From Escherichia coli O127:H6 str. E2348/69 (lineage in GTDB: Bacteria > Pseudomonadota > Gammaproteobacteria > Enterobacterales > Enterobacteriaceae), in assembly GCF_000026545.1 (NCBI RefSeq), contig NC_011601.1: a stretch of DNA of 64,000 bases. One strand, written 5' to 3'. The position numbers and the translations under genes are program-made. Below, piece by piece: positions 33,259-36,663 of the stretch (position 1 is its first letter; every line of letters begins with the position of its first letter). The notes beneath the pieces were generated by a model, which had not been told where the DNA came from, searched no databases, and worked only from the letters and a program-made list of their open reading frames with translations.

Positions 33259-34359
33259 ATGATTCCTGAAATTGAACTTAGAGATATTCAGCCAAAGGGA
33301 AGCAGTGATGTCCCGTCGTCTTCGCACATTCAGACTGGATTACCGATTCCAAAAACAGTGCGGGTTCAGTTCTTTAGCCCTGACGAATGGGAGTCGTTTA
33401 CAGAGGAATGGGCAAGTTATCTCAAAAATGAATATGTTGCAGCCAGACGCTTTGGGGGTTCTGGTGATCTTGGGATAGATATTGCTGGTTTCTGTTCTGA
33501 CAAGGGATTCGAGGCGGTATGGGATAATTATCAATGCAAGCGCTATGGACATCCTCTTCGGCCTGGTGATATCTGGGTTGAAATTGGCAAGATTATTTAT
33601 TACTCATATCTTGGCAAATATACCCCTCCACGAAAGCATTTTTTTGTTTGCTCTCAGGGAATAGGAACCAGTCTTGAACAGTTGTTGAACAAGCCTACTG
33701 AGTTGAAAGAAAAATCGATTGAAAACTGGGATAATTACTGTCTCAAGGGTATCACTTCTACTGCTGAAATTCCGTTGACTGGTGCATTAAGAGCTTACCT
33801 CGACGCATTTGATTTCACTATTTTCTCATCAAAATCGATAGTTGAGCTTATCGAAATTCATGCCAGAACGGGTTTTCACTCGGTTCGCTTTGGCGGCGGG
33901 CTGCCGTATCGGCCTAATCCATCTTCTCCACCAACCATACCGACGGAAAATGAAAGCCGATACATTCGCCAGTTGCTTGATGCCTATGGAGACCATTTAG
34001 GCACAAATTTACCAGACGCTGCTTCGTTGGCGTCACACAATCAATTTCGTAGTGACTATCTTCGCCAGCGCGAACGTTTTTATCACGCAGAATCGCTAAA
34101 GAATTTTGCGCGAGATACTGTTCCTGCGGGGACATTTGATGCCTTACAGGATGAAATCTACCATGGCGTAATTGATGTCTGCGAAGATTATCACTTGAGT
34201 GGATTTGCGAGAATGAAAGAAACCATGAAGCACGCTACCACTATCGCTGTCACATCAAATCCGTTGGTCACTTCAATTAAAACACAAGATCGCCAAGGTA
34301 TATGCCATCAGTTGGCTAATGACGATCGCCTGATTTGGGTGCCAGATAATGAATCATAA
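33259..34359 (+). CDS. Mrr-like PD-(D/E)xK nuclease-domain protein (366 aa); candidate effector of a Lamassu/ABC-3C-like defence system (LmuA-like)
   Basis: Residues ~47-96 FTEEWASYLKNEYVAARRFGGSGDLGIDIAGF...WDNYQCKRY align by eye with the Mrr catalytic core (GDGGIDG ... QCKRY); RBS aggga 6 nt upstream of ATG; stop overlaps the next gene's start. Confidence 0.75.
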   Translation: MIPEIELRDIQPKGSSDVPSSSHIQTGLPIPKTVRVQFFSPDEWESFTEEWASYLKNEYVAARRFGGSGDLGIDIAGFCSDKGFEAVWDNYQCKRYGHPLRPGDIWVEIGKIIYYSYLGKYTPPRKHFFVCSQGIGTSLEQLLNKPTELKEKSIENWDNYCLKGITSTAEIPLTGALRAYLDAFDFTIFSSKSIVELIEIHARTGFHSVRFGGGLPYRPNPSSPPTIPTENESRYIRQLLDAYGDHLGTNLPDAASLASHNQFRSDYLRQRERFYHAESLKNFARDTVPAGTFDALQDEIYHGVIDVCEDYHLSGFARMKETMKHATTIAVTSNPLVTSIKTQDRQGICHQLANDDRLIWVPDNES

Positions 34360-34834
34360 AAAACATCCAGAGCCCTTTAATAGTCCTTTCGAAACCGGGA
34401 TACGTTCGCTTGCGATTCTGGTTGCAGCCTTCCCTGAGTCTTATGATTTGCAACGGCTAGTTGAAATGGATTATCTCGTTGTGCATTCCGGTGATGCTGA
34501 TGGTCCTGACAGTTTGCATGCCCCATTACCGATGCGTGCGGGCGAACTACTGGTCAGGCATGGTTTGATTGAAAAGGGATTGATGCTCATGATGAGCAGG
34601 GGGCTCGTCCAACGTGTTTCAGCCAGTGATGGGTTCAACTATCTTGCTGGGGAGCTCGCTGCACCTTTTATCTCTTCTCTTACGACTGAATATTCATGTC
34701 GACTAAAAGTTTGTGCTGAATGGGTAACTGGTGAATTTAAAGACCTGCCTACGCAGGAAATACGGAACATTACGCATCGCTTGTTTCAGCAGTGGTCGAG
34801 TCAGTTCCAGAGTATTCAGTCATCTGGAGGATGA
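34349..34834 (+). CDS. small 161-aa protein of unknown function; candidate middle/accessory component (LmuC-like)
   Basis: Start overlaps upstream stop by 11 nt and stop overlaps downstream start; no recognisable catalytic motif. Confidence 0.6.
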   Translation: MNHKKHPEPFNSPFETGIRSLAILVAAFPESYDLQRLVEMDYLVVHSGDADGPDSLHAPLPMRAGELLVRHGLIEKGLMLMMSRGLVQRVSASDGFNYLAGELAAPFISSLTTEYSCRLKVCAEWVTGEFKDLPTQEIRNITHRLFQQWSSQFQSIQSSGG

Positions 34835-36663
34835 TGATGAGCGATAATTATTTGCAGCTTAGAAAAATTTTGTTCCATGGCCAAACCAAAGAATCCGTTT
34901 TATCTTTTTCATCCGGTATTAATGTGATTTGTGGGGCTTCCGATACCGGCAAATCATTCCTGGCAGAAACTCTGGATTTTATGCTGGGTGGAACGGAGCT
35001 CAGGGAAATTACAGAATTAGCTGCTTATGCAGAAATAACTCTCGATTTTGTCACCAGTGATGGTCGAAGTTGGCGTCTTCAACGTGCAGTGACTGGCGGG
35101 AATTTCAAGTTAACTGATTTGGATGAGCCAGACTCGGAACCTATCGTGCTAAAACAGAAGTACGTTCGGGGTAAAACGGATAATATCTCCAGTTTTTTAC
35201 TTGAACAGATTGGCTTGCCGAATAAGGAGATTTTGAAAAGTAGTACCAAAGCGACGACTCAGGGACTGAGCTTCCGCAATCTGGCGAGACTTGCTCTGGT
35301 TCAGGAAGATGAAATTCAGCATAAAGGCTCTCCCTTTTGGAGTGGGCAGTTCACAACCAAAACCGCTGAACTGGCAACGGTCAAACTGCTGCTGACAGGG
35401 GGTGATGATTCTGCGGTCGTTGCAGTGAGTGGCGATGGTGTAAGCAATACGTCTCAGATTATGTTGATTGATGAGTTAATTGCGGAGTTATCCATTGAAA
35501 TTAAGGATATGGGAGAAGAGCGTGATGATCTGGCTTCCCAACTGACCCGCCTTGAACAATCTATTGAGAGTCAACGTGAATCGCTCACTGCCGCACAGCA
35601 GCAACTAGAGCAGTTATTACAACAAAGGGGACTGGCCTTTGATGAGCGAAACAAAATCCAGGGACGACTGGATGAGATATCCGAACTACTTGCCAGATTT
35701 ACACTTCTGAATGAGCATTATGTTATAGATATCAACCGTCTGAAATCCATTCAGGAGTGTGGCTTGCTCTTCATGCATATTGACGTGATTCCTTGCCCTC
35801 ATTGTGGAGCTAGTCCAGCTCACCAACACCTGGAACAAATATGTGATGGAGATGTAGATTCAATCATTACTTCAGCAACTGCCGAGATGCAAAAGACCGA
35901 ACGACTTTTGGCAGAGCTGAATTGTACAGTCAGAGATCTTGTCAGCGAAAAGCAACGCCTTGAGAAGCAATACATTGTCCATGAAGAGGATTATTTGCGT
36001 CTTGATAAAGCCATTCGGGAAACTATTGCTCCTGAAGTTGACAGTTTCAGGCACTCGTATGCTGAACTGATCGACGAACGGGCCAGTGTCCAGCAATCTA
36101 TTGATTTGTTCTCAAGATTGGACCGGCTGGAAAGCAGGAAAGTGGCATTACAAAGCGATACTCCGGTAAAAAAAGAAAAAAGTGCGGTGCAAAACGGCAT
36201 TCCAGAGTCTGTTGCCCATAGTCTGTCGTTAAAAATCTCCTCTATATTAAAAGACTGGCATTTCCCCGGAGCATGCCAGGTATTTTTTGACAAAGATACT
36301 TCGGATTTTGTAATTGATGGAAAACCTCGCGGTAGCCGGGGAAAGGGGCTACGAGCAATTACCCATGCGGCAGTCAGTGTCGGACTACTTGAGTTTTGCC
36401 AAGAAAATGGGCTATCGCATCCGGGATTCCTAGTTCTGGATTCCCCTCTACTGGCTTACTACAAACCAGAAGGTGAAGATGATGTAGCTTTGCAAGGTAC
36501 TGACTTGAAAGAGAAATTCTATGATTATCTTGTGAAGCACCATAATGAAGATAGTCAGATCCTTATTATAGAAAATCCGCATCCACCGCAAAGCATGAAT
36601 AAACAGATTACTATGACGGTATTCACTGGTAATCCTAGGGTTGGCCGTTTCGGATTGCTTTGA
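34831..36663 (+). CDS. SMC/Rad50-like ABC ATPase with coiled coil and CxxC zinc-hook-like motif (~610 aa); candidate LmuB-like sensor ATPase
   Basis: N-terminal SMC-head pattern INVICGASDTGKSFLAETLDFMLGG (Walker A); long heptad-rich middle with CPHC at the apex; C-terminal GFLVLDSPL (Walker B-like) and ILIIENPH (H-loop-like); start chosen at the ATG triplet 34831-34839 just after GGAGG (ORF track begins at 34792). Confidence 0.75.
   Translation: MMMSDNYLQLRKILFHGQTKESVLSFSSGINVICGASDTGKSFLAETLDFMLGGTELREITELAAYAEITLDFVTSDGRSWRLQRAVTGGNFKLTDLDEPDSEPIVLKQKYVRGKTDNISSFLLEQIGLPNKEILKSSTKATTQGLSFRNLARLALVQEDEIQHKGSPFWSGQFTTKTAELATVKLLLTGGDDSAVVAVSGDGVSNTSQIMLIDELIAELSIEIKDMGEERDDLASQLTRLEQSIESQRESLTAAQQQLEQLLQQRGLAFDERNKIQGRLDEISELLARFTLLNEHYVIDINRLKSIQECGLLFMHIDVIPCPHCGASPAHQHLEQICDGDVDSIITSATAEMQKTERLLAELNCTVRDLVSEKQRLEKQYIVHEEDYLRLDKAIRETIAPEVDSFRHSYAELIDERASVQQSIDLFSRLDRLESRKVALQSDTPVKKEKSAVQNGIPESVAHSLSLKISSILKDWHFPGACQVFFDKDTSDFVIDGKPRGSRGKGLRAITHAAVSVGLLEFCQENGLSHPGFLVLDSPLLAYYKPEGEDDVALQGTDLKEKFYDYLVKHHNEDSQILIIENPHPPQSMNKQITMTVFTGNPRVGRFGLL

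Follow-up and report, generated by a model that had tools for sequence, protein, structure and literature searches.

What do the three genes at positions 33259-36663 of this 64,000-nucleotide window (the whole stretch of Escherichia coli E2348/69 DNA that was analysed, matched to that strain at 100% identity) encode, and do they act as one system? It is proposed that the operon is, very probably, a Lamassu (ABC-3C) defence system of the short type that belongs to the subtype with an Mrr effector and CTD6/MC2 modules and whose mechanism is assigned by homology; the family call is based on PADLOC, Pfam, RefSeq names, motif invariance, predicted structures and homology to the Lamassu-Mrr system of strain SE15. 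The ORF coordinates agree with the first-pass annotation in giving three co-directional, tightly packed, co-transcribable and intact genes, here named lmuA, lmuC and lmuB (Table 1), and the 11-nt overlap of lmuA and lmuC (ATGAATCATAA, 34349-34359) is present in the sequence as described. The TGA/ATG overlap that the same annotation placed at 34826-34842 stands only in part: the junction sequence GGAGGATGATGATGAGC and the lmuC stop codon TGA (34832-34834) are there, but lmuB has three in-frame ATGs as start candidates (34831, 34834 and 34837), and because nearly all LmuB homologues are 608 aa long and the PGAP start is 34837, lmuB probably starts 2 nt beyond the lmuC stop codon, preceded by a GGAGG Shine-Dalgarno site, instead of overlapping lmuC by 4 nt.

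Table 1. Features of the lmuACB operon and its surroundings, in window coordinates.
Feature	Position	Strand	Description
lmuA	33259..34359	+	effector, 366 aa; N-terminal Mrr-like PD-(D/E)xK nuclease domain, C-terminal ABC-3C CTD6 domain
LmuA nuclease domain, aa 38-160	33370..33738	+	core GGSGDLGID...YQCK at 33454-33540 (D70, D74, Q92, K94)
LmuA C-terminal domain, aa 232-360	33952..34338	+	ABC-3C CTD6, Pfam PF20282
lmuC	34349..34834	+	middle component, 161 aa, ABC-3C MC2
Shine-Dalgarno site GGAGG for lmuB	34826..34830	+	inside lmuC 3' end; direct sequence reading
lmuB	34837..36663	+	SMC/Rad50-like ABC ATPase, putative sensor, 608 aa; other in-frame ATGs 34831, 34834
LmuB Walker A GASDTGKS, aa 33-40	34933..34956	+	G33, S35, D36, T37, G38, K39, S40 invariant, A34 nearly so (21 sequences)
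LmuB antiparallel coiled-coil arms and apical loop	35446..36153	+	AF2 helices aa 204-314 and 340-439; arm pLDDT ~85-96
LmuB zinc-hook motif CPHCG at coiled-coil apex	35794..35808	+	C320, C323, G324 invariant, SE15 LmuB included
LmuB signature-like motif SRGKG, aa 500-504	36334..36348	+	S500, G502, K503, G504 invariant
LmuB deviant Walker B GFLVLDSP (D535-S536)	36424..36447	+	D535, S536 invariant
Segment common to E. coli IncF (ColV-like) plasmids	32892..37063		99.8% identity; query 993-5164 of window:31900-38700

The suggestion of a Lamassu/ABC-3C system with an Mrr-type effector and the order LmuA-LmuC-LmuB held on every point tested. Each protein is matched over its full length by a Lamassu model of PADLOC, LmuA by PDLC03852 (E 2e-133, spanning 3-335 of 336), LmuC by PDLC03871 (E 1.9e-54) and LmuB by PDLC03863 (E 2.1e-176, spanning 2-606 of 610), and such E-values, from 1e-54 to 1e-176, place the family match far beyond chance. 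Pfam assigns ABC-3C CTD6 to LmuA (PF20282, E 4.5e-48, aa 232-360), MC2 to LmuC (PF20288, E 2e-47) and AAA_23 to LmuB, and the small lmuC gene lies between lmuA and lmuB, as the Lamassu definition asks. RefSeq annotates all three proteins as ABC-three-component, with LmuA (WP_000611893.1) entered as 'ABC-three component system protein'; a search of NCBIfam returned no model for LmuA and none for LmuC, and for LmuB only SMC/Rad50 matches, all sub-threshold. The ABC-3C conflict systems that had been named beside Lamassu are a synonym of Lamassu type II and not a separate family, with no substantive difference. As had been anticipated, a Lamassu subtype with an Mrr effector exists in the catalogues, as PADLOC v2 models and as the Lamassu-Mrr of SE15, and the subtype found here is itself already catalogued through subtype-specific full-length PADLOC v2 models, Pfam CTD6 and MC2, and RefSeq names. 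A search of a limited literature collection found no paper linking Lamassu with E2348/69; for this reference enteropathogenic strain, an intact Lamassu-Mrr is already recognised by PADLOC, DefenseFinder and PGAP, and the assignment adds little knowledge.

The N-terminal part of LmuA is predicted to adopt an alpha-beta-beta-beta-alpha-beta arrangement, that is, a PD-(D/E)xK nuclease fold with a D...(Q/E)xK catalytic motif. The core motif first noticed in the sequence (GGSGDLGIDIAGF...WDNYQCK) is present, and the pattern GxGDxGxD...QCK, with D70, D74, Q92 and K94, is invariant in the family alignment. Of the two Pfam domains expected at the outset, AAA_23 was found in the ATPase, but Mrr_cat (PF04471) has no match in this LmuA; among its relatives it reaches 0/23 at E<=1e-3 and, as borderline matches, 12/23 at E<=0.1, and CTD6 is matched in 23/23 family members. 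The label 'Mrr-like' therefore rests on the fold, the motifs and an hhalign comparison of the LmuA family with the EcoKMrr catalytic domain (E 2.1e-4, probability 46%, motifs in register). Foldseek with the whole LmuA model gave a best E of ~2e-3, to Cap4, a weak score that is probably due to dilution by the CTD, which is modelled at low confidence.

In short Lamassu systems, LmuB is an SMC/Rad50-like ABC ATPase of ~600 aa that has a Walker A motif and an inserted coiled coil, and whose Walker B deviates to the pattern hhhhD[Q/S/T/E] (PMC12663957). The GASDTGKS, CPHCG and GFLVLDSP motifs quoted by the first-pass annotation are all found in the LmuB of E2348/69, and GFLVLDSP conforms to that Walker B pattern. 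Its AF2 model features a split ABC head and two helices of ~100 residues each with an apical hook, CPHCG, whose CPxCG pattern is invariant, sitting in the loop 315-339 between the two long helices. The best structural matches of this model in Foldseek are solved LmuB chains (9uxh_F, 9hqx_B and 9hqu_A, E 3e-12 to 2e-11), followed by Rad50. Invariant motifs, model and structural matches thus bear out the reading of gene 3 as a zinc-hook SMC/Rad50-like ATPase, and structure prediction returned what had been expected of both genes, a coiled coil with an apical CxxC in LmuB and a PD-(D/E)xK fold in LmuA.

The closest validated relative is the Lamassu-Mrr of E. coli O150:H5 SE15 (system SG108), which was validated as anti-phage, needed its ATPase site, effector site and lmuC for defence, and gave an abortive-infection phenotype (Millman et al. 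2022, bioRxiv 10.1101/2022.05.11.491447). Both systems share the gene order, an Mrr-nuclease LmuA with a CTD6-type C-terminus, an MC2 LmuC (labelled wHTH by Millman) and an SMC LmuB of ~610-630 aa, as well as the GxGDxGxD...QCK motif, Walker A, a single CxxC hook and a DS Walker B. We considered whether the two might be the same system and rejected it: the system of SE15 is a paralogue with 28-42% identity that occupies another chromosomal site, with full-length identities of 35% for LmuA, 42% for LmuC and 28% for LmuB, and the first 50 kb of SE15 plasmid pECSF1 contain no system of the E2348/69 type. The SE15 type is chromosomal and occurs in 511/5426 E. coli genomes, whereas the E2348/69 type occurs in 65/5426 and is mostly plasmid-borne; the former is experimentally validated and the latter is assigned by homology.

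Lamassu complexes have been solved for Vibrio cholerae DdmABC and Salmonella enterica LmuACB (PDB 9hqu, 9hqx, 9uxh), which are short Lamassu of the Cap4-CTD7/MC3 type. They resemble the E2348/69 system in the order LmuA-LmuC-LmuB, an LmuB of ~600 aa, a deviant Walker B and a PD-(D/E)xK effector, but that effector is Cap4 instead of Mrr-like and the modules are CTD7 and MC3 instead of CTD6 and MC2. The zinc hook is present in Salmonella LmuACB, where it is required for defence, and absent from V. cholerae LmuB, unlike the CPHCG-bearing LmuB of E2348/69. By sequence, E2348/69 LmuB matches the solved LmuB chains only at noise level (E 0.078), and PDB searches with single sequences and the LmuA family profile gave nothing significant for the CTD6/MC2 proteins; by sequence alone, therefore, the subtype cannot be linked to Lamassu proteins of solved structure. 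As there is no structure for the CTD6/MC2/Mrr subtype, it would be a sensible choice for carrying the sequestration-and-release model to effectors other than Cap4.

We derive a mechanism by homology to these Cap4-CTD7/MC3 complexes, in which an LmuA1:LmuB2:LmuC1 complex sequesters the effector until DNA-end sensing frees LmuA to oligomerise, and to the validated SE15 system. In an uninfected cell, an LmuB dimer and LmuC would hold one LmuA through its C-terminal domain, so that the nuclease stays a monomer without activity. When a phage (or plasmid) replicates, the heads of LmuB would detect, in a step that depends on ATP, DNA ends or intermediates of replication, and LmuA would be released to oligomerise through its CTD; the assembled Mrr-like nuclease domains may then cut DNA indiscriminately, with death or arrest of the infected cell, i.e. 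abortive infection, as the outcome. From the solved CTD7-type complexes we infer that CTD6 serves as the sequestration and oligomerisation module. Against this reading of an active Lamassu, it can be said that the mechanism is borrowed from Cap4-CTD7/MC3 complexes, and that the Bacillus cereus Lamassu-Mrr, whose LmuA is 40% identical to that of E2348/69, was negative in the defence assay of Millman et al. (2022, bioRxiv 10.1101/2022.05.11.491447). The low-confidence CTD model, the failure of Mrr_cat to reach significance, the missing sigma-70 promoter match in a simple upstream scan and the lineage-specific G189 of LmuB count against it as well.

Comparison with other genomes bore out the expected co-occurrence of the three genes: the same triad, in the order CTD6-MC2-ATPase with overlapping junctions and different flanks, is found in distant Advenella, Acinetobacter and Chelativorans genomes, and thus across alpha-, beta- and gamma-proteobacteria, as well as on Klebsiella and E. 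coli plasmids. The E2348/69 operon differs by 3 nt from a widespread plasmid copy, the Klebsiella plasmid copy being more diverged (97.9% identity), and the plasmid-shared segment, which is the horizontally moving unit, comprises the operon with ~370 nt upstream; on ColV-like plasmids its surroundings include iss, ompT and mig-14, with IS1 at the right end. Near-identical copies reside on many E. coli IncF ColV-like virulence and resistance plasmids; these, together with the Klebsiella copy, may for this reason affect the success of phage therapy and the ecology of plasmids in strains from patients and poultry. It is possible, if on balance unlikely, that the main role is anti-plasmid activity or inter-replicon competition serving the conjugative plasmids that carry the system, and not phage defence, as has been reported for V. 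cholerae DdmABC. That 58 of the 69 occurrences counted in complete E. coli genomes lie on plasmids, mostly conjugative IncF ones, that V. cholerae Lamassu targets plasmids as well as phages, and that no copy of the system occurs in 50,697 phage records would all fit such a role. However, SE15, the closest validated relative, scored anti-phage; defence systems are commonly carried by plasmids, so that carriage alone is no sign of anti-plasmid function; and the two roles could coexist through the same mechanism.

A more far-reaching proposal, which we regard as doubtful, is that CTD6/MC2 Mrr Lamassu may be mechanistically distinct from the Cap4-CTD7/MC3 type (for instance in nuclease assembly or licensing), that it may act mainly in inter-replicon competition while sparing its own plasmid, and that its pairing with a retron may reflect functional cooperation. 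A role in replicon competition is conceivable because most E. coli copies are carried by conjugative IncF virulence plasmids.

It is also improbable that the operon of E2348/69, though intact, is a functionally silent relic in an already decaying island, either for lack of expression, e.g. through H-NS silencing of AT-rich DNA, or through weakening by a glycine at LmuB residue 189. The adjacent retron is indeed truncated, its RT spanning model positions 1-123 of 308 and its ptuA and ptuB, kept in other strains, being lost; a simple promoter scan upstream of lmuA found no convincing sigma-70 promoter; and G189 occurs only in the E2348/69 copy, the plasmid copies having V. Yet all three ORFs are intact and so close to the widespread plasmid copy, and position 189 varies across the family (V, I or L, and H in SE15). 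That the upstream 370 nt accompany the operon on plasmids points to a promoter of its own. On sequence comparison, moreover, the triad is under purifying selection, with pN/pS = 0.126 relative to the Klebsiella copy and no internal stops.

The active Lamassu that we favour also has to be set against the better known proteins that its parts resemble. LmuB resembles Rad50/SbcC in its split ABC head, its antiparallel coiled coil and the CxxC zinc hook at the apex, and Rad50/SbcC-Mre11/SbcD is the proposed evolutionary source of Lamassu; however, LmuB has a much shorter coiled coil and a Walker B without the catalytic glutamate (D-S), and its partners are LmuC and an effector that, by homology, would be sequestered and toxic. 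LmuA aligns in register with the Type IV restriction enzyme EcoKMrr at GG(S/T)GDxGID and Q-x-K-R-(Y/W) and shares its PD-(D/E)xK fold, but it lacks the N-terminal winged-helix DNA-binding domain of Mrr, and its nuclease domain is fused instead to ABC-3C CTD6, with control by LmuB and LmuC as its likely regulation. The idea that a stand-alone Mrr-like restriction enzyme merely sits beside an unrelated SbcC/Rad50-like repair ATPase, to which the EcoKMrr alignment and the weak Rad50/SMC resemblance of LmuB in NCBIfam and PDB sequence matches might lend some colour, is effectively refuted because Lamassu-specific HMMs cover all three proteins and the triad keeps its order and overlapping junctions in three proteobacterial classes with differing flanks, and an Mre11/SbcD partner is absent.

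With respect to its setting, the operon is, as first described, adjoined by hipA/hipB and a retron remnant. The description of an AT-richer island holds mildly, at a GC content of 0.446 for the operon against 0.466 for the whole window, but a neighbouring fimbrial operon is equally AT-rich. A downstream ORF (36831/36990-37292) was considered as a fourth component and rejected: it has no family match, is cut by IS1 on ColV-like plasmids, and is missing beside the triad in distant genomes. The locus can be described as a defence island in decay, in which Lamassu is retained and the retron is truncated. Retrons lie beside both Lamassu-Mrr types, one of the Ec78 type in the small defence island of E2348/69 and one of the Ec67 type at the SE15 paralogue, which may be simple co-location in a defence island.

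The three co-directional genes lmuA, lmuC and lmuB of Escherichia coli O127:H6 str. E2348/69 encode a genuine Lamassu system, and the first-pass annotation, which had read them from the bare sequence as a Lamassu/ABC-3C operon of an Mrr nuclease, a small protein and a zinc-hook ATPase, was right in this interpretation. The family models of PADLOC-DB v2, Pfam and NCBIfam were searched. LmuA, LmuC and LmuB match the PADLOC-DB v2 models PDLC03852 (2e-133), PDLC03871 (1.9e-54) and PDLC03863 (2.1e-176), each over its full length. In Pfam, residues 232-360 of LmuA match the C-terminal domain type CTD6 (PF20282, 4.5e-48), LmuC matches the middle-component type MC2 (PF20288, 2e-47) and LmuB matches AAA_23; NCBIfam has no model for LmuA and LmuC, and for LmuB gave SMC/Rad50 matches only, all below threshold. 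Type II Lamassu and ABC-3C denote one kind of system, and DdmA, DdmB and DdmC of Vibrio cholerae correspond to LmuA, LmuC and LmuB, respectively. Co-occurrence of the three genes in other genomes, on which the reading had been made to depend beforehand, is seen in Advenella, Acinetobacter and Chelativorans, where the order is kept between different flanks. Defence-system catalogues already list the system at subtype level, the subtype has been functionally validated, and annotation is automatic: the PGAP products are 'ABC-three component system protein' (lmuA), 'ABC-three component system middle component 2' (lmuC) and 'AAA family ATPase' (lmuB).

Features of the Lamassu island of E2348/69 (window coordinates)
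Feature	Position	Strand	Remarks
Gene 1 (lmuA)	33259-34359	+	366 aa; ORF list
Gene 2 (lmuC)	34349-34834	+	161 aa; ORF list
Gene 3 (lmuB)	end at 36663	+	ORF list
Segment common to IncF ColV-like plasmids	32892-37063		
Small ORF between lmuB and retron	36831/36990-37292	+	100-153 aa by start choice
Terminator-like hairpin	37303-37322		the region's strongest; directly 3' of small ORF
Retron msr RNA, intact	37529-37593	+	Rfam RF00170, 79.9 bits vs gathering score 52
Type I-A retron reverse transcriptase, truncated	37585/37660-38061	+	model positions 1-123 of 308
Hypothetical-gene fragment	38185-38641	-	annotated pseudogene
Site-specific integrase fragment	38682-40061	-	annotated pseudogene

The window matches the E2348/69 chromosome at 100% identity, every motif quoted in the first-pass annotation lies where it was placed, and lmuA and lmuC overlap by 11 nt as described. 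The junction of lmuC and lmuB, GGAGGATGATGATGAGC (34826-34842), contains the TGA that ends lmuC (34832-34834) together with three ATGs in frame for lmuB, and had been taken for an ATGA overlap. Since nearly all LmuB homologues are 608 aa long and PGAP places the start at 34837, a 2-nt gap is favoured as a minor correction; the most likely order is a GGAGG Shine-Dalgarno site, the stop, and the lmuB start 2 nt on. The operon is AT-richer, as claimed, but weakly so (GC 0.446 vs 0.466 for the window).

In an alignment of 23 LmuA family members, including both LmuA proteins of Millman et al., residues G67, G69, D70, G72, D74, W88, Q92, C93 and K94 are invariant. The AlphaFold2 model of LmuA, confident over residues about 35-200, orders its elements as H41-57, E61-65, E72-78, E88-94, H102-117 and E126-131; this predicted H-E-E-E-H-E succession is that of the PD-(D/E)xK core, with D70 and D74 where the second strand begins and Q92-x-K94 where the third ends. 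The top solved structures in a Foldseek search are Cap4 endonuclease domains (E from 2e-3). Pfam Mrr_cat does not match E2348/69 LmuA and is only borderline in 12 of 23 relatives (best E 1.4e-3), but hhalign pairs residues 38-159 of the family with the catalytic domain (163-285) of E. coli K-12 EcoKMrr at E 2.1e-4, aligning GGSGDLGID with GGTGDGGID and YQCKRY with VQAKRW. The N-terminal part of LmuA is accepted as a predicted Mrr-like PD-(D/E)xK nuclease because of its conserved motifs, modelled fold and alignment to EcoKMrr; strict membership of the Pfam family is unproven.

Across 21 aligned LmuB sequences, that of E. coli O150:H5 SE15 among them, the Walker A residues G33 and S35-S40, C320, C323 and G324, S500 and G502-G504, and the Walker B pair D535-S536 are all invariant; hhhhDS is the deviant Walker B form described for short Lamassu (PMC12663957). 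The LmuB model consists of an N-terminal head half, a helix (204-314), a low-confidence loop (315-339) containing CPHCG, a second helix (340-439) and a C-terminal head half. The invariant CxxC and this predicted structure bear out the proposal of a Rad50-style zinc hook centred in a coiled coil. The best PDB matches by Foldseek are solved LmuB chains, 9uxh_F (3e-12) followed by 9hqx_B and 9hqu_A, and then Rad50, SMC heads and JetC. Position 189 (codon at 35401-35403), inside a conserved LLLTGxDDS stretch, is G in E2348/69, V in the copies on Klebsiella and ColV-like E. coli plasmids, and V, I or L in most relatives.

Supplementary file 11 of Millman et al. (2022, bioRxiv 10.1101/2022.05.11.491447) lists two systems of Mrr nuclease LmuA, wHTH LmuC and SMC LmuB: SG108 from SE15, which defends, and SG107 from Bacillus cereus 172560W, which gave no defence in their assay. 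In their main text, mutating the effector domain or the ATPase site of the SMC protein, or deleting lmuC, abolished defence by the defending Lamassu-family systems, and the SE15 system gave a growth phenotype of abortive infection. LmuA of E2348/69 is 35% identical to that of SE15 and 40% to that of SG107, and LmuC and LmuB are 42% and 28% identical to their SE15 counterparts. Identities of 28-42% rule out that the triad is the very system tested; judged by sequence, it is instead a paralogous member of the SE15 subtype. The Lamassu complexes with solved structures, from V. cholerae, Salmonella and Bacillus, belong to the Cap4-CTD7/MC3 type or to type I, and no solved structure is detectably related by sequence to the E2348/69 LmuA, LmuC or LmuB. 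What is directly observed for the triad is its domain architecture, its conserved motifs and operon structure, and purifying selection; its mode of action may be sketched by analogy with the solved relatives. LmuB2-LmuC would sequester the CTD of LmuA until DNA ends or replication intermediates are sensed, when binding and slow hydrolysis of ATP would release LmuA; the freed LmuA would oligomerise via its CTD, and the nuclease domains, then active, would degrade DNA and abort the infection.

For LmuA, 1,917 family members are detectable, typically of about 365 aa and spread over many bacterial groups. The triad occurs in 65 of 5,426 complete E. coli genomes, each time at at least 99% identity, and 58 of its 69 places are plasmids; the operon was found in none of the phage records searched. 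Against the 97.9% identical copy on Klebsiella pneumoniae pINF192.3, pN/pS is 0.126. Strain SA186 combines the two paralogues, with the SE15 type in its chromosome and the E2348/69 type on plasmid NZ_CP022732.1.

Further chromosomal copies of the triad stand at the same site, adjoining ydeQRST, and have on their 3' side an intact Ec78-type retron that encodes RT, PtuA and PtuB; the complete Ec78-type retron comes after this Lamassu in E. coli strains 2017-02-1CC and MB64 and on pINF192.3. Of its retron, E2348/69 retains the msr RNA and only the initial ~40% of the RT, and ptuA and ptuB are missing. The SE15-type Lamassu-Mrr, present in 511 E. coli genomes, lies directly 3' of an Ec67-family retron (RT/endonuclease) on the SA186 chromosome (5244-10775), so that a retron neighbours each of the two Lamassu-Mrr paralogues of E. 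coli. The small ORF between lmuB and the retron matched no family in PADLOC or NCBIfam, is interrupted by IS1 in ColV-like plasmids and is not kept beside the triad in distant genomes. The two pseudogene fragments between the retron remnant and hipA/hipB (hipBA) mark where the island has decayed at its right end. On its 5' side, E2348/69 has retained fimbrial genes (27504-31880, - strand) for an usher of full length (883 aa), a chaperone and a major subunit resembling fimA; in the other strains that carry the island at this site, the usher gene ydeT is a truncated pseudogene and the chaperone and fimA genes are absent.
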